A DNA stretch of 64,000 nt from an uncultured Spirochaetaceae bacterium (GCA_964435795.1 CAYTAT010000003.1:128981-192980), one strand, 5' to 3'; positions 41,609 to 63,689 are shown, counted from the first letter of the stretch. The notes: generated by a model from the letters alone, not told the origin. Numbers and translations: made by a program.

Positions 41609-43936
41609 TTACGCAGCCCAATCCTTTTCGTAGACCGTCCACTCGCCCTCTTCAGAATCGGCCTCTTCCTTGAGCTTGGTTCCACTCTTTACGATGAACC
41701 AGATCAAGGGCAGAACGCCGCCGACGATGAAGAGAGTTCCGCCGATCGCCCTGAAATAGGTCAGGGTCTTCCAGACCGTTCCCGTCAGGATTTCCTGGGA
41801 GCGGGCGTACCAGAGTCCGTCCTGCACCACGATCATCAACTGATACAAACCAACGGGGAAGAGATCGAGGAACATCATCAATGCCACTCCGCCATTCAGT
41901 GACCAGAAGGCCGTACGAACCAGCTTGGGATTCCAGGCTTCCTTGGAGATCAGATGCTGGATGCAGAAGAGCATGCCACCCAATGCGATATTCCCCTTGA
42001 CCCCGAACATCGCAGCATGGGCGTGATTACCGGTCATATAAGTCGCATGCTCGTAATAGTTCACGATGGGCAGATTGATCAGCGATCCGAATACTCCGGC
42101 TCCGAAGATATTCCAGAAGTTCACGGCCAGGACGAATAGCCAGACGCCTTCCATCACGAATAGCTGTCGACCCTGGACAAGATTCACATTCGCCCGGGAG
42201 GCCTCCGACTTCATGCGCCATGCATCGAGGGTCAGCAGGAGAAGAGGTAGAACCTGAAGCGTGGAGAAGACACCGCCTACGGCGATGATCCCCGTGGGCT
42301 TCGCGATCCAGTAGAAGTTATGCGAAATGCCAAGTGTGGCAGTCACGAGGAACATCATGACGGCGAGGAAGATCACCCGTTCGCACATCACGCGCGAAAT
42401 CAGGCCCATCTGGACGAGGATATAACCCACGATGACAGTCGTGAATACTTCAAAGGTCACCTCAACCCACATATGGACAACCATCCAGCGCCAATAGTCG
42501 GAAACCGCGAAATTCTGCTCCGGCGAAATCATCAGACCAAAGAAGAGAAACGCGACCATGATTCCACTTCCATAGAGGAGCCATGAAGGAACCGACCAGA
42601 TGTTCCGCGCGGTGAGCCACGGCCTGACCGCACGGTAGATGATGAAGATCCAGAGAGCGAATGAACTCAGCAGGGTGTACTGGAAGAATCGCCCGATCTC
42701 CATGAATTCCCAGCCCTGGCTTCCAAACCAATACGCGGTCGATCCGGTGATCATCCCCGTCTGCCCCGCGTAGATGCCAACCAAGGCACCCGCGCCGGTA
42801 ACCATGCAGATCGCGAATAGCGCGTTAATCAGGAATAGCTGTCCGTTCGGGACCTTGGAAATCCTCGGCAGGAAGAAAATCGTATAGCCCACCCAGGCCA
42901 TAAAGAACCAGTAGATCTGGAATATCGTGTGGTAGCTGCGCAGAACGGTGAAGGGAATGATCTCGCCCAGGGAAATCCCGAATGGACGAACGAAGTCCAT
43001 GGAAGCGAGCATACCCGCGAGCACCTGGCATCCGAAGAGGATGATCGAGAAGACGAAGAATTTATACGTCGCCCTCTGGGTCGCGCGCACGCGCCCCTCT
43101 TCAAGGTCATTCGTAGTAAGGGATGTGCCATCTCCTTCAAAGGCGTCCCCCTGTTGCTTGAATTGGCCGTATATATAGAGGACGGCAGCAATACCGAGAA
43201 ACAATCCAAAGATCGAGACGAAGCTCCAGAGCCACGTCTGGCCGGTGGCCGTATTGCCGGCGTCGGGATCGTAGGGCCAATTATGGGTATAGCTATAGTC
43301 CTGGTTCGGACGATTCGCAGCAGAGACCCAGGCCCCCCAGAAGAAGAAGGCGGTGAGGTCGCGGAGATCGGTAGGATCGGAGATGTATCCCGCTGGATCG
43401 AAGGCTTCCTCATACTCGGCATCATTGAACATGGCCGTGTAGTGGCTGATCAGGTTCTGAAAGGCCTGGATCTGCGCCTCATTGATAACGATCTTCTCGG
43501 CTTTCTCATCCCAGCCGTTGAAATGAAGTTCCCGGCGCACCCTCGCCGCGATCGCATCCCGATCGTATTGGGTGACATTCGAAGTGCTGGTGGACAACTC
43601 CTCTTCATAGAATTCCCGCATCGTCACGACAGTTCGGTGAAGGGCGTCAGCGGTAAAGTCGGGACCGCGTTCCGCACCGTCACCCCAGAACGACCCATAT
43701 CCCATCAGGCCCCTCAGATGAAATACTTCCTGCCCGTGCTTGATTTCTTCGCGGGTAATCACCACCTCTCCAGTAGTGGCCGACGTGAAGGCCTCAAGGG
43801 GAGGAGCTCCCGTATAGGTTTGGGTACCGAGATAGATCAGCCCGGTGATGCAGATCGCCGAAACGATCAGGAAATGCACCCACCAGGTCTGCTTGTCCTG
43901 CAGTATTTGTGCAACATTCCGGCCCTCATCACTCAT
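41609..43936 (-). CDS. norB: quinol-dependent nitric oxide reductase (qNOR, NorZ-type fused NorB)
   Basis: ORF 41609..43936, 775 aa. N-terminal TM plus periplasmic extension, then a heme-copper oxidase core with HNFYW and GNHAHAAMFGV. Confidence 0.9.
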   Translation of the reverse strand: MSDEGRNVAQILQDKQTWWVHFLIVSAICITGLIYLGTQTYTGAPPLEAFTSATTGEVVITREEIKHGQEVFHLRGLMGYGSFWGDGAERGPDFTADALHRTVVTMREFYEEELSTSTSNVTQYDRDAIAARVRRELHFNGWDEKAEKIVINEAQIQAFQNLISHYTAMFNDAEYEEAFDPAGYISDPTDLRDLTAFFFWGAWVSAANRPNQDYSYTHNWPYDPDAGNTATGQTWLWSFVSIFGLFLGIAAVLYIYGQFKQQGDAFEGDGTSLTTNDLEEGRVRATQRATYKFFVFSIILFGCQVLAGMLASMDFVRPFGISLGEIIPFTVLRSYHTIFQIYWFFMAWVGYTIFFLPRISKVPNGQLFLINALFAICMVTGAGALVGIYAGQTGMITGSTAYWFGSQGWEFMEIGRFFQYTLLSSFALWIFIIYRAVRPWLTARNIWSVPSWLLYGSGIMVAFLFFGLMISPEQNFAVSDYWRWMVVHMWVEVTFEVFTTVIVGYILVQMGLISRVMCERVIFLAVMMFLVTATLGISHNFYWIAKPTGIIAVGGVFSTLQVLPLLLLTLDAWRMKSEASRANVNLVQGRQLFVMEGVWLFVLAVNFWNIFGAGVFGSLINLPIVNYYEHATYMTGNHAHAAMFGVKGNIALGGMLFCIQHLISKEAWNPKLVRTAFWSLNGGVALMMFLDLFPVGLYQLMIVVQDGLWYARSQEILTGTVWKTLTYFRAIGGTLFIVGGVLPLIWFIVKSGTKLKEEADSEEGEWTVYEKDWAA

Positions 43937-55560: not shown

Positions 55561-55757
55561 AGCGGGGAGAAGGCAAAACCCACGTCGCGGGTAAAGAATC
55601 GCTCGGATCCGGATCCGCCAACTTGCGTCGAGAGGCTGACTCCAGGGCCTTTTCGGGTTAGCGTCAGATACAATCCCGTCGGCAATAGGGAGTGCTGCGC
55701 GAGCCGCACTGCTCCCTTGAGGCACACCCCTATTTCCGATCAAACCCGGGAGTTGCA

Positions 55758-57026
55758 ATGGGGGATGACCGAACGGTGATGACCATTCACGATGGACAGC
55801 CGGCAAGCGGAAGGTATAGGAGGGACTGGACGATTCCCTGTCTGGTCGCCCTCGCCCTCCTGCCGGGTTGCGAGTCGCCCGAGCCCAGGAAGAAGGAAGT
55901 TCCCGAAGTCGTCGTCGTCGATGTCGAGCAGAGGGATGTCCCGATTCACGCCGACTGGATCGGCACCACCGAAGGCTATAACAACGCCACCATCCGCCCC
56001 CAGGTCCGGGGATACCTGCTCGCGATCGACTACCCCCAGGGCACGTTGGTGAAATCCGGCCAATCACTCTTCCGGATCGATCCCCGGGAATTCCAGGCGC
56101 AAGTGAATAGTGCCAAGGGCCAGCTCGGTGAGGCCAAGGCGAATCTGGCCAAGAGCAAGACCCACGTCACGCGTTATAAGCCCCTGGCCAAAGAAGGGGC
56201 CATCAGCGAGCAGGAACTCGATGATGCGGTACAGAATATGCTCGCCGCCGAAGCCAGTCTCCTGACCGCCCAGGCGCACGTCGAGCAGGCGGAACTCAAC
56301 CTCGCCTGGACGACGATCGCTTCACCCATCCAGGGCGTGGCGGGCATCTCCAAGGCCCAGGTGGGCGATCTCGTGACACCCGAAACTCCGCTCGCCACTG
56401 TCTCCCAACTCGATCCCATCAAGGTCAATTTTCCGATCAGCGAGAAGGCCTACCTCGAGGTGGTCCGCAATACCGGCGGATCTTCGGCCGAGGGGCGCCT
56501 GGCTTCGGCCGGCCCCATCCTCGAACTCTTCCTGGCCGATGAATCCGCCTGGCCAGAACGAGGTACGCCCTTCGTGCTGGGAAGAAATGTCGATGCACGA
56601 ACGGGGACCATCGTGATCGAAGGACGCTTTCCGAACCCCCATAACGTCCTTCGGCCGGGGCAGTTCGCAAGAGTTCGGATTCACGTGGGCAACCGGGATA
56701 ACGCACTCCTCATCCCCCAACGAGCCGTCGAAGAAATCCAGGGGAAATTCCTGGTCGCCGTGGTCTCCCAGGAGGATGTCGTGGACGTTCGGGCGGTGGA
56801 GGTGGGAGATACGGTCGGAACGGATTGGATCATCAGCAAGGGAATCGAGGCCGGGGAGAGGGTCGTGGTCGAGGGACTCCAAAAAGTGCGAACGGGGATG
56901 AAGGTGAAAACCCGAACGAAGAAGAGCGATCCGGGGCAGAAAAAGTCCGCACCCGGCAGCCCGAACCCAGCCGGAGCATCGGATGCCCGGCCGAAATCCG
57001 CATCGCCTGAACCGAAGAAGAACTGA
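55758..57026 (+). CDS. RND efflux periplasmic adaptor (MFP) lipoprotein
   Basis: ORF 55692..57026 trimmed to ATG 55758, with GGGAG upstream. Lipobox LALLPGC. HlyD/AcrA-like IRPQVRGYL, coiled coil and beta-barrel segments. Confidence 0.9.
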   Translation: MGDDRTVMTIHDGQPASGRYRRDWTIPCLVALALLPGCESPEPRKKEVPEVVVVDVEQRDVPIHADWIGTTEGYNNATIRPQVRGYLLAIDYPQGTLVKSGQSLFRIDPREFQAQVNSAKGQLGEAKANLAKSKTHVTRYKPLAKEGAISEQELDDAVQNMLAAEASLLTAQAHVEQAELNLAWTTIASPIQGVAGISKAQVGDLVTPETPLATVSQLDPIKVNFPISEKAYLEVVRNTGGSSAEGRLASAGPILELFLADESAWPERGTPFVLGRNVDARTGTIVIEGRFPNPHNVLRPGQFARVRIHVGNRDNALLIPQRAVEEIQGKFLVAVVSQEDVVDVRAVEVGDTVGTDWIISKGIEAGERVVVEGLQKVRTGMKVKTRTKKSDPGQKKSAPGSPNPAGASDARPKSASPEPKKN

Positions 57027-57040
57027 TCGAAGCCGACTCC

Positions 57041-60000
57041 ATGTCCAGTTTTTTCATTCATCGCCCAATCGTTTCCATGGTGATCGCAATCATCATGGTG
57101 ATTCTGGGCGTCGTGGCCATGCTCGGCCTGCCGATCTCACAATTTCCGGATATCGCTCCGCCTCAGATCAGCATCAGTACGCTCTATGTCGGCGCCGATG
57201 CCCTGACGGTCCAGAACTCCGTTGCGACACCCATCGAAGAAAGCGTGAGCGGCGTCGAAGGCATGAACTACATGTATTCGATCAACGCCAACAACGGCAT
57301 GATGGTGCTGCAGGTCAACTTCGAGGTGGGGACCGACCCGAATAATGATCAGATCCTGACCCAGATGCGTTACTCGGAGTCCGAAGCCCAACTGCCCGCG
57401 GACGTGCGGAATTTCGGGGTGACGATTCGACAGGCCACGACCAGCCCGATGGCACTCTTTTCCCTCTACTCGCCCGACGGCACCTACGACGCCCTCTTCC
57501 TCTCCAATTATGCCTACATCAACATCATGGATGCGATGGCCCAGATCGACGGCATCGGCCAGGTCGAGATCTTCGGTGCCGGTGAGTACGCAATGCGCAT
57601 CTGGGTCGATCCGGATACCCTGGCGAATCTGGGCATCACCGTTCCCGAAATCGTGGCTGCCATACAGAGTCAGAATACGGTCAATCCCGCCGGCAAGGTA
57701 GGGGGTGAGCCAGTTCCCGCCGGACAGGAATTCACCTACTCGGTGAGGGCACAGGGGCGGCTGACCTCCCTCGAGGAATTCGAGAATATCATCGTCCGGG
57801 CGAGTTCCGATGGCTCCATCATTCGCGTAAAGGACGTCGCACGAGTGGAACTCGGTGCCCAGACCTACAACCTGATGGGCCACTTCAATGGCAAGCCCGC
57901 GGCGATTGTAGCCATCTACCAGCAGCCGGGATCAAATGCCCTGGCCACAATGGATTCCGCAAGCCAGTTGATGGAATCCTTGAAGAAGCGCTTTCCGGAG
58001 GGCCTCGAATACGTGGTCTCCCTCGACACCACCGAGGCCGTTCGCGAAGGGGTGAGGGAGATCATCGTGACCCTCTTCGAGGCCCTCGCCCTCGTCATCC
58101 TCGTGGTCTTTCTCTTTCTCCAGAGCTTCCGAGCAACCTTGATCCCGCTTCTCGCCGTCCCCGTTTCCCTGGTCGGAACCTTCATGCTCTTCCCCATACT
58201 GGACTTTTCCATCAACACTCTTTCCCTCTTCGGCCTCGTCCTCGCCATCGGGATCGTGGTCGACGACGCCATCGTGGTCGTGGAGGCCGTCGAGAACAAG
58301 ATCGAGAACGGCATGGCGCCCAAGGATGCAGCCGTTCAGGCGATGCGTGAAGTGACGTCTCCGATCATCGCCACCACCCTGATCCTGATGGCCGTATTCG
58401 TGCCCACGGCTTTCATCCCCGGCATCTCGGGGCGCCTCTTCCAACAATTCGCCGTCACCATCGCGGTCTCCGTTCTATTCTCCTCCATCAACGCGCTGAC
58501 CCTCAGCCCCGCCCTGGCGGGCCTGCTGCTGCGTCCGAGAACGAAGTCGAGCGGACCTCTGGCGCGCTTCTTTGCCGCCTTCAACCGCCTTTTCGATCGA
58601 GCCACCCAGGGCTACCTCAAGGGCTGTGGCTACCTGATCCGCAAGTCGGGCTTGTCGATGCTGGCATTGGTCGGGGTGGTCTTCATCGTGGGCTTCAGCG
58701 GAGAAAAACTTCCCTCGGGCTTCCTCCCCCAGGAGGATCAGGGTTACCTCTTCCTGAACCTGCAACTCCCATCGGCCGCTTCGATACAGCGCACCAACGC
58801 GGCCTGCGAGAAGATCGAGAAGATCCTCTCGGAAACTCCCGGGATCGAGAGCTACAACACGATCGTGGGGTTCAGCCTGCTCTCCGGAGTCCAGACGACG
58901 TATAACGGATTCTTCTTCGTCACCCTGAAACCCTGGGGAGAACGCGATCCCCTCGGCCTCAGCGCAAAAGTCATCACGCATCGGCTGAACCTGGAATTAT
59001 CCGAATTCGCCGAGGCCGAGGCCTTCACCTTCCCTCCCCCGGCAATTCCCGGCGTGGGGAGTTCGGGGGGGATCACGTTCATGCTGGAAGACCGCGATGC
59101 GCGGGGAGTGGAGTTTCTATCCGAGCAGACCCGACGCTTCCTCAAGGCGGCCCGCGAACGACCCGAACTGGCACGCGTCTCCACCACGGCTCTCTTCGAC
59201 GTCCCCCAGATCTACGCGGAAGTCAACCGGGAGATGGCCCTCAAACTGAACGTTCCCCTGGCCGGGGTCTACCAGACCATGCAGGCCTATATGGGTGGGA
59301 TCTTCGTCAACTACTTCAACCGTTTCGGACGCGTCTGGCAGGTCTACGTCCAGGCCGAGGGATCATTCCGGAACGACGTCGACAAACTCGGACGCTTCTA
59401 TGTCAAGAATGCCGACGGGGGAATGGTTCCACTATCTGGACTCACGACGAATAAGAGGGTTCACGGGCCCGAGTTCACCATGCGTTTCAACCAGCATGAA
59501 ACAGCCCAGTTGATGGTGATCCCCGCTCCCGGCCATAGCGGTGCCGAGGCCATGGAAATTCTCGAAGAGATCTTCGATGAGACCATGCCCGAGGGCATGG
59601 GATACGACTATATGGGAATGGCCTATCAGGCGAAGCAGGCCGCCGCGGGCGTTTCTCCCGCGGTCATCTTCGCATTCTCCCTGCTGATGGTCTTCCTCAT
59701 CCTGGCGGCCCAATACGAGAGCTGGGCGCTTCCATTCAGTGTCCTGCTCACGACCCCCATCGCCGTCATGGGGGCCTTCCTGGCGCTGATGGCCCGTTCC
59801 TTCGCAAGCGATGTCTACACCCAGATCGGCCTCGTCATGTTGATCGGCCTGTCCGCAAAGAATGCGATCCTGATCGTTGAATTCGCCCGAGCGCGAATGG
59901 CCGAGGGGGATGGAATCGAGGAGTCCGCCCTGCAGGCGGCCGGATCCCGACTGCGCCCGATCCTGATGACCGCCTTCGCATTCATCCTCGGAGTCATGCC

Positions 60001-60190
60001 CCTGGTGACCGCCAGCGGCTCGGGCGCCGTTTCGCGCCAGGTGCTGGGCACCGTCGTCCTCGGCGGAATGCTGGCCGCGACATGCATCTCGATCTTCGTC
60101 GTGCCCTCGACCTTCGCCGTGGTCGAGAAGCTGGCCCACCGCTTCTCATCTCGGAAGCAGGAGGGTACCGCTTCCGGAGGATCGGAGTGA
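57041..60190 (+). CDS. RND efflux permease (HAE1/AcrB family)
   Basis: ORF 57041..60190, 1049 aa. MSSFFIHRPIVSMVIAIIMV..., GIVVDDAIVVVE and LSAKNAILIVEFA. Confidence 0.95.
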   Translation: MSSFFIHRPIVSMVIAIIMVILGVVAMLGLPISQFPDIAPPQISISTLYVGADALTVQNSVATPIEESVSGVEGMNYMYSINANNGMMVLQVNFEVGTDPNNDQILTQMRYSESEAQLPADVRNFGVTIRQATTSPMALFSLYSPDGTYDALFLSNYAYINIMDAMAQIDGIGQVEIFGAGEYAMRIWVDPDTLANLGITVPEIVAAIQSQNTVNPAGKVGGEPVPAGQEFTYSVRAQGRLTSLEEFENIIVRASSDGSIIRVKDVARVELGAQTYNLMGHFNGKPAAIVAIYQQPGSNALATMDSASQLMESLKKRFPEGLEYVVSLDTTEAVREGVREIIVTLFEALALVILVVFLFLQSFRATLIPLLAVPVSLVGTFMLFPILDFSINTLSLFGLVLAIGIVVDDAIVVVEAVENKIENGMAPKDAAVQAMREVTSPIIATTLILMAVFVPTAFIPGISGRLFQQFAVTIAVSVLFSSINALTLSPALAGLLLRPRTKSSGPLARFFAAFNRLFDRATQGYLKGCGYLIRKSGLSMLALVGVVFIVGFSGEKLPSGFLPQEDQGYLFLNLQLPSAASIQRTNAACEKIEKILSETPGIESYNTIVGFSLLSGVQTTYNGFFFVTLKPWGERDPLGLSAKVITHRLNLELSEFAEAEAFTFPPPAIPGVGSSGGITFMLEDRDARGVEFLSEQTRRFLKAARERPELARVSTTALFDVPQIYAEVNREMALKLNVPLAGVYQTMQAYMGGIFVNYFNRFGRVWQVYVQAEGSFRNDVDKLGRFYVKNADGGMVPLSGLTTNKRVHGPEFTMRFNQHETAQLMVIPAPGHSGAEAMEILEEIFDETMPEGMGYDYMGMAYQAKQAAAGVSPAVIFAFSLLMVFLILAAQYESWALPFSVLLTTPIAVMGAFLALMARSFASDVYTQIGLVMLIGLSAKNAILIVEFARARMAEGDGIEESALQAAGSRLRPILMTAFAFILGVMPLVTASGSGAVSRQVLGTVVLGGMLAATCISIFVVPSTFAVVEKLAHRFSSRKQEGTASGGSE

Positions 60191-61629
60191 TGCGTCTCGT
60201 CGCCTTCGCGTGCGCGATCGTATGCTTCCAGGCCGGATGTGCGATCGGCCCCAGCTACAAGCGTCCGGAAGTCGCGCTTCCCGACTCCTATCGCGGCAAC
60301 CTCCAGACCGATGACGCCATGACCCTGGCCGATCTCCCCTGGTGGAAGGTCTTCGAAGATCCCGTTCTCGTCGACCTGATCTCCGAAGCCCTGAACAAGA
60401 ATCTCAACCTCGAAATCGCCGTCGCCCGCACCGAACAGGCCTATAGACAATCCAGGGCCGTCCGATCCGAATTCTACCCCCAGGTCTCCTTCGATGGTTC
60501 GGCGGGAAGAAGCCGCTCCCCGGTCGTGCCGCAACCCGGAACAAGCCTCACCTACACCAACTACGCGGGTGCCCTGAACGTCGCCTGGGAGGTGGATATC
60601 TGGGGCCGGATTCGACGGGCGAGCGAGTCTGCCCGCGCCCAACTCCTCGCCTCCGAGGATTTCCAACGGGGCATTCTTCTATCCGTCGTGGCGGATGTCG
60701 CCTCCCTCTATTTCGCACTCCTCGACCTGGACACCAGCCTCGCCGTAGCGAAAGAGGCCGTCTCCGCCTTCGACGATACCCTCGAACTCTTCACCCGGAA
60801 ATACGAAGGCGGAATCGCCTCCAAGCTGCAGGTCTCCCGAGCGGCCGCATCCAGGGCCCAGGCGACCGCCCTCGTTCCCGCGATTGAAATCCAGATCGCC
60901 GCCCTGGAAAATCAGCTCAGCGTGCTGCTCGGCCGCCTTCCGGGCAAGATTCCCCGCGGCGAGAGATTGAACGACCAGCCGCTGCCCCAATTGCCGGCCG
61001 GACTGCCCTCGGCCCTATTGGAGCGCCGTCCGGATATCCGCCGAGCCGAGCAGGACGTCATCGCATCGAATGCCGAGGTCGGCGTCGCGATGGGAAACTT
61101 TCTTCCTCGCGTCGGTCTCGTCAGCTTTTGGGGAGGCGCTTCCGAAGATCTCGAGGGCCTGGCGAGCGGGAGCACCAGCCTCTGGAATCTGGCCGGGGAG
61201 TTGTCGGGGCCACTCTTCAGGGGAGGCCTCCTCTACTCCCAATACAAGACCCGACAGGCGCTCTGGGAAGAAAGCCGGAGCGAATACGAACTCACCGCCT
61301 TGAATGCCTTCGCGGAGGTCTCCAGCCTGATCGTCGAGAATAGACTGCGAAAGAGCCAACGCGCGGCCCTGGAGACCGAAGTCAAGCAGCTGAGGGAATC
61401 CGTCAGGCTTTCCCTGATTCGCTACGACCAGGGTCTGGCCAACTACTTCGAAGTCCTCGAAGCCCAGCAGCAACTCTATCCCGCGGAAATCAACCTCTCG
61501 GAAGTCCGACTGGAAGAACAGCTCTCCATGGTCAAGCTCTATCGCGCACTCGGGGGGGGATGGAGTTTGGGGCTCGACTGGAGGGTCTCCGAGAATCCCG
61601 GATCCGAAAAACCGGGATCGACACCCTAG
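60190..61629 (+). CDS. RND efflux outer-membrane factor lipoprotein (NodT family)
   Basis: ORF 60082..61629 trimmed to ATG 60190, which overlaps the permease stop (GTGATG). Lipobox FQAGC, then GPSYKRPE. Confidence 0.9.
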   Translation: MRLVAFACAIVCFQAGCAIGPSYKRPEVALPDSYRGNLQTDDAMTLADLPWWKVFEDPVLVDLISEALNKNLNLEIAVARTEQAYRQSRAVRSEFYPQVSFDGSAGRSRSPVVPQPGTSLTYTNYAGALNVAWEVDIWGRIRRASESARAQLLASEDFQRGILLSVVADVASLYFALLDLDTSLAVAKEAVSAFDDTLELFTRKYEGGIASKLQVSRAAASRAQATALVPAIEIQIAALENQLSVLLGRLPGKIPRGERLNDQPLPQLPAGLPSALLERRPDIRRAEQDVIASNAEVGVAMGNFLPRVGLVSFWGGASEDLEGLASGSTSLWNLAGELSGPLFRGGLLYSQYKTRQALWEESRSEYELTALNAFAEVSSLIVENRLRKSQRAALETEVKQLRESVRLSLIRYDQGLANYFEVLEAQQQLYPAEINLSEVRLEEQLSMVKLYRALGGGWSLGLDWRVSENPGSEKPGSTP

Positions 61630-62001
61630 CGGGCTCGCACCCTGCTCCCATCCGGGCCTCGGATATCTCTTCGGGGAGAATGGGGAGGAAGATCCGTCTC
61701 CCCTTACCGCTCGCCAATTGGCCCGGTGCGAGAGAGGCCCGAGGATTGGCGGAAAAGCCTGCGGATTTCCGCTGCGGCCCCAGCACAATAAGCTGGAGCC
61801 GCAGCGGAAATAGCCGGATCCAGGGCTCGGAGTCCTGGCGTGAGACGGGCGAGGCAAGCATTTTCCTCGCATCCCCTGCCGGGAAATCCGGGCGATCATC
61901 GCGATCCCGGTTACCCTTGCCGACAGCCATCTGGAACGGGCAATCGTTCGGAACGCGAGCGAAATTCGAAACCAATCAACCATGGGCGGAAGAGTAAAGG
62001 G

Positions 62002-62955
62002 ATGTCGGCTATTGGCGAGCGGAATGAAGCCGGGAAACCCGTCGACTACATCGCCCTCACCCGGGCGACCTACGACGAACTCGGATTTCCCCCCTATCAA
62101 TGGGTGGAGAATAGGGAACCCCCGCCCTGGGCTCCGGTGGATGTCGCCCTCGAGGACGCCTCTCTATGTGTGATCGCGTCCGGGGGCATCTATCGCTGCG
62201 GCCAGCGCGCTTTCCACCATAAGGACGATGCCTCGTACCGGATCATCGACACCTCCACACCCCCGGACGAGCTGCGGGTCACGCATTTCGCCTACGACCT
62301 CAAGGACGCCCGGGAGGACCCCAACGTGGTCTTCCCCCTCGAACCCTTGAGGAAACTCGTCGCCGAGGGATGCCTGGGCTCCCTCACCTCCCAGGCCTTC
62401 ACTTTCATGGGCGGCATCTACTCGGCCCGCAAGGTGAGGGAAGAACTCGCGCCGGAACTCGTCGCCCAGGTCCGCGACCAGAGGGCGGACCTCGCGCTCC
62501 TCGTCCCCGTCTGACCGGTCTGCCATCAGTCGGTCGGACTGATTGCGAGGCAACTGGAAGCGGCGGGAATCCCGACTCTCTGCATGACGAGCGCCCTCTC
62601 GATCACGCGTTCCGTGGCCGCCCCGAGGGCCGCCTTCGTCGATTTCCCCCTGGGCCATACTGCGGGAAAGCCCCATCGACCCGAACTCCAGCGCGAACTC
62701 ATGGCCGAGGCTCTGGCGGCTTTTCACGAACTGCAATCCCCCGCTGAAATCCGATTTCTTTCTCAACGCTGGTCTCGGGATGAGAGCTGGCGACAGAATC
62801 CGATGGCGAATTCCGCTTCCGAAACAGAGCGGGCTGGAAGCGACTTCCGAACCCCGCGCCGGGATACGCCCCAATACCAGTATTCAGCCGACCGGGTCGA
62901 AGCGGAGAATCGACACCGCAGCGGGGGCTGCGGGACCTGTGTGGGGGCCGAATAG
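62002..62955 (+). CDS. GrdB/PrdB-family (PF07355-like) protein, predicted selenoprotein with TGA(Sec) at 62512-62514
   Basis: ORFs 61840..62514 and 62584..62955 share one frame, and the single TGA is the only stop between them. Read-through gives LLVPV-U-PVCHQSVGLIARQLEAAGIPTLCM...FPLGHTAGKP. ATG 62002 (MSAIGERNEAGKPVDY) is taken as the start. Confidence 0.65.
62522..62546 (+). promoter_or_regulatory. bacterial SECIS-like hairpin downstream of in-frame TGA
   Basis: Stem ATCAGTC / GACTGAT (62525-62531, 62537-62543), extended by GC / GC pairs across one C-T mismatch. Apical loop is GGTCG. The loop starts 18 nt after the TGA. Confidence 0.5.
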
Positions 62956-63197
62956 ACCCGTCGGTCGCTGAATTGGGAAGAGAGAGCTCCTCCACCTGCG
63001 GAGCGGGAATGCGGGCCCCTATCCATTGACCTGCCCTGACTTGACTTGCCCTGAATCCACAGGCCCGGAACGCCCTGGGAACCCCCTTGCGGGTGGGCCG
63101 ACCTATCTCCTGTATGCTCTTTTCACCGGCTTCAACTCCGCGGCAACTCCGCAACCGATGCGATCCGTGAGATCAGATCCGGTTGGGAAGGGTAGAC

Positions 63198-63689
63198 ATG
63201 GGATGGATCCTGAAATTCCTCGCCTTCATCGGGGTGGTCCTTGGCCTGATCGTTTTCGCAGCCCGTTTCCAGGACGGACCCCTCGGCCCGATCGCCGGTG
63301 GACCCCTGGAATCCGGCCCCAAGGTGGGATCGAAACGCGTCGATTTTTCCTTCGCGAAGAACATCGGAGAAATCGAGTTGCAACTCCTCGAACCGCCCCG
63401 ATCGCGCACGACTTGGGTCATCTACTACGAGGGCTCCCTCTTCGTGCCGGCGGGTTTCATGAACCTGCCCATCTGGAAGCAATGGCCCCATGAAGCCATG
63501 GTCGATGGCCGCGCGATCGCGAGGATCCAGGGCAAGCGCTACCCCTTTCAGATGGAAAGGGTGACGGACGTAAGACTCTGGGAGCAGATCGGTGCCCTCA
63601 CGACTCAGAAATACGACCTCCCGAAACCGGATAGCAGCCCGGGAGGAAGAGATCTCTTCTGGGTTTTCCGCCTCTCGCCCCGAAGCTAG
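63198..63689 (+). CDS. hypothetical membrane-anchored protein
   Basis: ORF 63183..63689. ATG 63198 gives MGWILKFLAFIGVVLGLIVFAA (TM helix), then a soluble domain. No family recognised. Confidence 0.45.
   Translation: MGWILKFLAFIGVVLGLIVFAARFQDGPLGPIAGGPLESGPKVGSKRVDFSFAKNIGEIELQLLEPPRSRTTWVIYYEGSLFVPAGFMNLPIWKQWPHEAMVDGRAIARIQGKRYPFQMERVTDVRLWEQIGALTTQKYDLPKPDSSPGGRDLFWVFRLSPRS

Follow-up and report, generated by a model that had tools for sequence, protein, structure and literature searches.

A stand-alone PrdB-like selenoprotein of the GrdB/PrdB superfamily, very probably decoded through an in-frame UGA, in an uncultured Spirochaetaceae bacterium

True PrdB, a subunit of the D-proline reductase of Stickland fermenters, is a protein of anaerobic Clostridia. 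It has selenocysteine (Sec, U) within a U-x-x-C motif and occurs in nature in both Sec and Cys forms, and proteins of the GrdB type have the longer motif U-x-x-C-x-x-C (both PMC13188914). In the betaine reductase GrdHI and the fluoroacetate reductase FarEB, a C-N+ or C-F bond is cleaved without Schiff-base activation, and, as GrdI and FarE show, the substrates dealt with by B-type systems that lack a pyruvoyl group have leaving groups that are intrinsically good (PMC10838667). The subject of this paper is a gene at 62002-62955 of a 64-kb stretch of DNA from an uncultured Spirochaetaceae bacterium (hereafter the window, with positions numbered from its start). Judged by its sequence, it encodes a U-x-x-C selenoprotein of the GrdB/PrdB (PF07355) superfamily that is PrdB-like and stand-alone; PrdB is its closest curated model, yet the protein is not PrdB, and the UGA at codon 171 is very probably recoded as Sec.

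A preliminary description of the locus had proposed that two open reading frames (ORFs), 61840..62514 and 62584..62955, are joined by a single TGA at 62512-62514, and translation bore this out: the two are in the same frame, and between the ATG at 62002 and the TAG at 62953-62955 that TGA is the sole internal stop. The read-through product has 317 residues, with 146 codons 3' of the TGA, and the peptide across the junction, ...RADLALLVPV-U-PVCHQSVGLIARQLEAAGIPTLCM...PLGHTAGKP..., was exactly as had been quoted, including its V-U-PVCHQSVGLIARQLEAAGIPTLCM portion. The expectation that gene callers would split or truncate such a gene was also correct. Public calls of this exact gene choose the ATG at 62002 and all end at codon 170, and the resulting 170-aa product is recorded on at least 24 contigs from different samples, its second half being without any call; in one relative, each half was given a gene of its own (179 and 135 aa). 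The segment 62002-62955 is one gene, systematically mis-annotated. These same truncated or split calls could be held to favor the TGA being a true stop, either between two small genes or in a pseudogene created by a nonsense mutation or a sequencing error, as could the periodicity of GC content at third codon positions (GC3), which is lower after the TGA (0.67) than before it (0.82) and by itself is weaker downstream. A sequencing error or private mutation, however, sits poorly with an identical product on contigs from that many samples. A scan of the window for other TGA-interrupted coding frames yielded only adjacent same-frame genes.

The strongest evidence on the TGA came from two samples of relatives. 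The genomic sample comprised one genome per GTDB species and had a relative in at least 588 species, the best 80 loci being analysed; the second, 77 loci on metagenome contigs, was seeded independently with Cys-type proteins. The TGA was present at exactly this column, followed by PVCHQ, in 80/80 of the best genomic loci, none of which ended there, as homology (by tblastn) ran on to residue ~297-317 and mostly to 313-317. These 80 loci span approximately ten phyla or lineages, including Myxococcota, Acidimicrobiia, Binatia, Gammaproteobacteria, Acidobacteriota, Chloroflexota, Methylomirabilota and Entotheonella, with the closest relatives (63-73% identity) being in the Myxococcota; full-length relatives in general have 40-73% identity to the 317-residue window protein. 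Although the metagenomic sample was seeded with Cys-type proteins, 60 of its 77 loci had TGA and 17 had Cys. The column that the preliminary description had marked for comparison in homologues is therefore occupied by TGA, Cys or Thr, with 56 Cys-type and 6 Thr-type proteins or loci counted overall besides the TGA forms. Database proteins accordingly form two populations, one of ~175 residues ending in ...LLVPV and one of ~300 residues with Cys (39) or Thr (6), and most matches in an exhaustive representative search stopped at query residue 169-170. Relative to Myxococcota orthologues, both halves of the gene had pN of ~0.18-0.29, pS of ~0.53-0.76 and dN/dS of ~0.1-0.2, indicating purifying selection on either side of the TGA. 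In addition, 6 of 12 neighboring genes end normally at TGA, which indicates that the codon has not been reassigned in this organism. Conservation of the TGA, the two protein populations, selection on both halves and the lack of reassignment together argue that the TGA is decoded.

The preliminary description had also noted a hairpin resembling a selenocysteine insertion sequence (SECIS) at the expected distance, and this was found to be present and covarying. Bacterial SECIS elements are stable stem-loops directly downstream, with a small apical loop containing guanosine (PMC1088965), features that the window hairpin has. Its core stem, 62525-62531/62537-62543 (AUCAGUC/GACUGAU), carries the apical loop GGUCG (62532-62536), there are outer pairs at 62522-62523/62545-62546, and its folding energy is -12.7 kcal/mol; it lies 11 nucleotides (nt) after the UGA and within the next 11 codons, with a UGA-to-loop spacing of 17 nt and a loop that begins with G. 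Among 119 distinct Sec-type sequences, 97.9% of cells were paired, with compensatory double changes at three pairs (U-A/C-G in 32 sequences, U-A/A-U in 17 and G-C/A-U in 5), a covariation score that was reached by 0/500 shuffles, and slid 3' partners were at most 35% paired. Some of these compensatory changes alter the peptide and keep the helix, e.g., QSVGL (CAGUCC...GGACUG) versus QTVSL/QTVCL (CAGACC...GUCUG). Cys-type genes have not kept the hairpin, having a mean of 65% of the pairs and an imposed energy of -1.7 kcal/mol versus -10.7 kcal/mol in Sec-type genes, and of two near-orthologues that share their genomic context, L139 (Sec-type) forms it and L123 (Cys-type) does not. The peptide that follows CHQ is fixed as S-V-G-L or T-V-S/C-L in Sec forms and is variable in Cys forms (ATAIV, TMSMI, SVCII and others); being frozen in the one and free in the other, it bears the footprint of an RNA constraint, and the SECIS here illustrates how an RNA signal can freeze a peptide. 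Set against a covarying hairpin found after the codon in TGA-bearing genes only, the recurrence of this TGA in independent relatives (80/80 and 60/77), purifying selection on what follows it, and Cys-type relatives that are single polypeptides, the notion of a true stop is hardly credible.

Exchange between Sec, Cys and Thr has been repeated within the family, based on a neighbor-joining tree and locus comparisons. Six full-length relatives (P0001, P0007, P0008, P0009, P0011 and P0014) have Thr at the Sec column (T-P-V-C-H-Q) and keep Cys174. One of them, P0001, retains the SVGLIAR peptide typical of SECIS-bearing genes, suggesting a recent loss of Sec. A further database protein, P0036 (195 aa), has Trp at the column and then the Sec-type SVGLIAR, and is most likely an annotation artefact, in which a Sec-type gene has been translated under a genetic code where TGA means Trp.

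Membership of the GrdB/PrdB family with a U-x-x-C center, as originally claimed, withstood profile searches. PF07355 (GRDB) matched with 30.9 bits against a gathering threshold of 22, and the best NCBIfam match was to TIGR04483 (D_pro_red_PrdB; E=1.3e-44, 152.4 bits), with residues 40-254 aligned on model positions 17-231 of 238, an alignment that crosses the Sec site and includes U171-P-V-C174. This best curated match, over nearly the whole model, could be held to favor the PrdB subunit of a genuine Stickland D-proline reductase whose PrdA is elsewhere in the genome, and JGI labels several relatives “D-proline reductase (dithiol) PrdB”. However, the equivalog cut-off of TIGR04483 is 300 bits, and all the Cys-, Thr- and Sec-type relatives tested, like the window protein at 152, fell far below it (116-155 bits), with no curated NCBIfam model claiming them. 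The subfamily model TIGR01918 gave 48 bits, under its cut-off of 65.45, and the GrdB/GrdF/GrdH models gave 43-54 bits versus cut-offs of 602-800 and aligned only at ~220-425 of their 431-435 positions. Family-specific segments fall outside the PrdB model at both ends, an N-terminal extension of ~25-40 residues and a conserved C-terminal extension of ~60 residues (W..W..R.PR..PQYQ..DR, with W257, W263, R286, P290, Q293 and D297). In addition, neither a PrdA-like protein nor any other conserved partner was present in ~160 loci, among the genes of the host locus are some for O2-dependent enzymes (P450, AurF-like, luciferase-like monooxygenase and haem-copper oxidase family), and relatives are in aerobic lineages. 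A score so far under the cut-off, the missing partner and the O2-dependent enzymes of the host indicate that this is not D-proline reductase, and we regard a Stickland role as highly improbable.

AlphaFold (AF2) models of the window protein and of the Cys-type relative P0002, with predicted local distance difference test (pLDDT) scores of 90.5 and 91, respectively, had a single-domain alpha/beta fold in which U171 is in a loop between strand 164-168 and helix 173-187. In these predicted structures, U171 and Cys174 are placed in the way that is typical of a redox-active U/C-x-x-C pair. The sequence at the site is U-P-V-C-H-Q-S, residue 177 being Ser, and there is no third Cys. Approximately 35 polar or aromatic residues are invariant across the protein, among them Y24, Y32, Y64, Q68, D76, R80, R92, H95, Y140, S141, H175, Q176, R183, E186, R209, D214, W257, W263 and R286.

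The C-terminal C310-x-x-C313 of the window protein belongs to a tail that was found in 77/80 of the closest Sec-type relatives and in 15/59 complete metagenomic Sec-type genes, and in 0/62 Cys- or Thr-type proteins. A strict coupling of this CxxC tail to Sec, which the first sample had implied (77/80 versus 0/45 Cys/Thr-type), was overturned by the second, in which 44/59 Sec-type genes were without it. The tail is plausibly a flexible redox relay.

Based on the chemistry of PrdB and GrdB (PMC13188914, PMC10838667), the selenolate would attack an electrophilic carbon of a small substrate, with reductive cleavage of a C-N or C-X bond; Cys174 would then resolve the selenoether to give an Se-S bond (selenenyl-sulfide), and a dithiol would re-reduce this bond, possibly via the C310-x-x-C313 tail in this sub-clade. 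As no pyruvoyl-forming partner (PrdA/GrdE) is nearby, the substrate probably needs no Schiff-base activation, and the precedent of GrdI and FarE, taken with the lack of a linked pyruvoyl proprotein, makes a substrate with a good leaving group likely by analogy. The protein could instead be a real selenoprotein in which U171/C174 is a generic thiol-disulfide or peroxide center or, with C310/C313, a four-ligand metal site, and no C-N/C-X cleavage takes place: thioredoxins, too, have such a motif at the N-terminus of a helix, the T-P-V-C of Thr-type members recalls the T-x-x-C/U motifs of peroxiredoxins (PMC1088965), the window clade has a second CxxC, and there is no partner that would activate a substrate. 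The fold, however, does not resemble that of thioredoxin, with Foldseek giving no significant PDB match; the invariant polar and aromatic residues point to a pocket for a particular small molecule, most of the family lacks the CxxC tail, and Cys-type genes are in catabolic operons with CoA-transferases, all of which make a generic redox or metal center unlikely relative to a reductase of small substrates.

The window was annotated gene by gene over ~31.6-64 kb, the annotation of ~31600-54000 being from L089. As the preliminary description had stated for the window, no grdA/C/D/E, prdA or thioredoxin genes were found, a result that holds for the annotated ~31.6-64 kb and also just past the window end. 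The survey of neighboring genes was extended to ~160 loci, i.e., the 80 genomic loci, for which all ORFs within 5.5 kb were clustered, and 84 further loci, and in these there was neither a conserved partner gene nor linkage to PrdA, GrdA/C/D/E or a thioredoxin system, although such genes may be present elsewhere in the genome. Based on the lack of linked PrdA, Grd or thioredoxin partners, the protein is considered stand-alone. Nuo, glutamate synthase, MIOX and an ABC ATPase were rejected as partners, their recurrence being lineage synteny.

Among Cys-type relatives, links to coenzyme A (CoA) metabolism were apparent. The PrdB-like gene is often the second of a translationally coupled pair, and in three unrelated Cys-type lineages its 5' end shares 4-8 nt with the stop region of the family III CoA-transferase gene ahead of it. 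A CoA-transferase was present at 10/21 Cys-type loci versus 4/60 Sec-type loci; the CoA-transferases reach no equivalog. In another lineage, an acyl-CoA dehydrogenase gene is directly upstream of both Sec forms (L139, L147 and L160) and Cys forms (L120, L123, L127 and P0017), and as this lineage has Sec and Cys orthologues, it is a natural pair for determining the contribution of Sec. The coupling to CoA-transferases and the adjacency of acyl-CoA dehydrogenase in Cys-type relatives suggest a CoA-thioester substrate. From this it can be conjectured, with low probability, that the family consists of pyruvoyl-independent reductases of aerobic bacteria whose substrates are CoA thioesters. An alpha-substituted acid bearing a good leaving group, e.g., a betaine, would first be converted to its CoA ester by a family III (CaiB-like) CoA-transferase; Sec/Cys171 would then expel that group from the alpha-carbon to yield an acyl-CoA, e.g., betainyl-CoA giving acetyl-CoA and trimethylamine. 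If true, this would make the protein a single-polypeptide, oxygen-tolerant equivalent of the glycine, betaine and proline reductases of clostridia, and a selenoprotein family that is among the most abundant in the ocean would gain a function.

Several features of these Cys-type and related loci are of separate interest. The overlapping pair of L090 forms part of a cluster of six genes on the same strand, others of which encode an APH-like kinase, a protein of the enolase superfamily and one resembling a flavin N-monooxygenase, and L087 has a nitroreductase-family gene 29 nt downstream. In the betaproteobacterial-type lineage (L092 2246-7799; L120/L127/L139/L147/L160), an IclR regulator, a (split) acyl-CoA dehydrogenase and the PrdB-like gene follow one another in that order, and in L092 the glycine-cleavage genes gcvP/H/T are convergent right after the PrdB-like gene.

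Overall, a Sec-recoded, stand-alone reductase of the PF07355 superfamily with a redox U/C-x-x-C pair is the explanation that we hold with considerable confidence. A number of points count against it. The catalytic mechanism is drawn wholly by analogy. PDB searches by sequence gave no usable structural relative for the protein, and Foldseek with the model of pLDDT 91 gave no significant PDB match (best E=5.5e-3, TM <=0.3); with no solved superfamily structure found by sequence or fold, the active-site geometry comes from prediction only. The existence of Thr-type members means that position 171 is dispensable in some lineages, and since 44/59 of the other Sec-type genes do without the CxxC tail, Sec function does not depend on it. 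The 64-kb window had no tRNA genes (ARAGORN) and no Rfam matches, yet Rfam does not cover embedded bacterial SECIS elements; selA, selB, selC and selD were not among the genes of the annotated 31-64 kb. The window gene itself has no CoA-transferase neighbor; it is flanked by an RND efflux operon on one side and a gene for a membrane-anchored hypothetical protein on the other. The commonest neighbor in the 80 genomic loci, an enoyl-CoA hydratase (22/80), was discarded as a conserved partner, since it is from a very common paralogous family and its distance and strand are variable.

Upstream of the selenoprotein gene, the tripartite RND efflux operon (55692-61629) is complete, and its gene order is kept on several metagenome contigs of the same organism (Table 1). 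A gap of 372 nt separates its outer-membrane factor gene from the selenoprotein gene, and an inverted repeat within this gap, at 61765..61811, could be an operator or could mark a terminator-like boundary of transcription. Neither a consensus sigma-70 promoter nor a T-rich terminator was found in 61500-63300. Downstream, the ORF at 63183-63689 has orthologues of 57-63% identity at the same position in the Myxococcota loci L008 and L009, and a 37%-identical one is upstream in L012; it could be a lineage-specific partner or simply synteny. A convergent enoyl-CoA hydratase gene follows beyond the window end. Within ~31600-54000 there are a haem-copper oxidase of NorB type, fused to a cytochrome c domain (minus strand, 41609-43936), and a COX3-like protein, a P450 with two small ferredoxins, an AurF-like di-iron oxygenase and a luciferase-like monooxygenase, and also an aldehyde dehydrogenase, two amidohydrolases and a pyridoxal phosphate-dependent decarboxylase adjoining an MFS transporter. 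This redox and oxygenase cluster suggests a host that is aerobic and catabolically versatile, and is not what a Stickland fermenter would carry.

Table 1. Features of the selenoprotein gene and its surroundings in the window, and gene overlaps in Cys-type relatives.
Feature	Position	Strand	Evidence or remarks
PrdB-like selenoprotein gene	62002..62955	+	317 codons + TAG; translation, PF07355/TIGR04483 matches across the TGA, full-length relatives
UGA codon 171, very probably Sec	62512..62514	+	First residue of U-P-V-C; TGA kept in 80/80 genomic and 60/77 metagenomic relatives
Cys174, U-x-x-C partner	62521..62523	+	No exception among full-length homologues; first turn of helix 173-187 in the model
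Bacterial SECIS hairpin	62522..62546	+	Folding, covariation in 119 sequences, loss in Cys-type genes
C-terminal C310-G-T-C313	62929..62940	+	Feature of a Sec-only sub-clade; low-confidence tail, pLDDT ~58
RND membrane-fusion protein	55692-57026	+	Upstream efflux operon
AcrB-type RND pump	57041-60190	+	Upstream efflux operon
OEP-family outer-membrane factor	ends 61629	+	Upstream efflux operon
Inverted repeat, 20 nt	61765-61784/61792-61811	.	95% complementary, 7-nt spacer; ATTTCCGCTGCGGCCCCAGC/GCTGGAGCCGCAGCGGAAAT; no T-run
Membrane-anchored hypothetical, 168 aa	63183-63689	+	N-terminal hydrophobic segment; no Pfam match
CoA_transf_3/PrdB-like overlaps	L087 8001-8004; L090 6001-6004; L093 6001-6008		Translational coupling

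Proteins resembling that of the window have been encountered before. The 2005 Sargasso Sea selenoproteome listed a “Proline reductase PrdB” with UxxC as its third most abundant selenoprotein, with 42 genes and a Sec:Cys ratio of 42:1 (PMC1088965), and the Global Ocean Sampling (GOS) study of 2008 had 235 Sec and 110 Cys homologues under pfam07355 (PMC2398784). The entries of both surveys share with the window family the PF07355 domain, the U-x-x-C motif, an origin in bacteria of the oxic surface ocean and an excess of Sec over Cys forms. Both papers took them as proline reductase, did not separate them from true PrdB and did not discuss the missing PrdA. The window family includes marine metagenome-assembled genomes (TMED72, Rhodospirillaceae) and TARA contigs; with true PrdB in anaerobic Clostridia and the window family in the open ocean, the survey entries are very probably members of the window family, a match made by description. 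Reviews up to 2026 have only “D-proline reductase, TIGR04483” (PMC9312934, PMC13188914), marine “grdH-like” matches have been reported from Proteobacteria (PMC5537630, PMC9321204), and our literature search found no paper that set the stand-alone clade apart or discussed its missing partners. The preliminary description had called the gene an orphan family member, and the orphan status stood, there being no conserved Grd/Prd partner in the ~160 loci. The gene is less novel than was supposed there, as the family is no rarity, with relatives in at least 588 species, and PrdB-labelled UxxC selenoproteins, very probably of this family, had already been tallied in metagenomes. The window gene adds to a family already known as selenoproteins, and would not surprise a selenoprotein specialist. 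Surveys appear to have labelled the family “proline reductase” for twenty years, although it is in aerobes without a linked PrdA, and a dedicated family model with a Sec flag would mend thousands of annotations. The coupling of Cys-type genes to CoA-transferases, the frequent Sec/Cys/Thr exchanges and the Sec-only CxxC tail are handles for biochemistry, and the gene is a good entry point to an abundant environmental family.

Of the described systems, PrdB of Clostridium sticklandii and Clostridioides difficile is the most similar, with a single domain, a U-x-x-C motif and nearly the whole of its model (TIGR04483) aligned. It differs in that the window protein reaches only half the equivalog cut-off and has no linked PrdA pyruvoyl proprotein, PrdC or other prd genes, in the extra conserved N- and C-terminal segments of the window family, and in distribution, the window family being in aerobic or facultative environmental lineages (Myxococcota, Acidimicrobiia, Binatia, Gammaproteobacteria and Acidobacteriota) and not in Stickland fermenters. 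GrdB, GrdF and GrdH are two-domain proteins of ~430 residues, and homology to the window protein is with their C-terminal ~200 residues, including the Sec site; with 317 residues, the window protein is without their N-terminal ~220, its U-x-x-C is without the third Cys of U-x-x-C-x-x-C, and no grdA, grdE/G/I, grdC/D or trxAB are nearby. GrdHI and FarEB have a GrdI or FarE partner and pass their product to GrdA/GrdC, and nothing equivalent is linked to the window gene, but it is their chemistry, with no pyruvoyl partner, that would be expected of the window protein.

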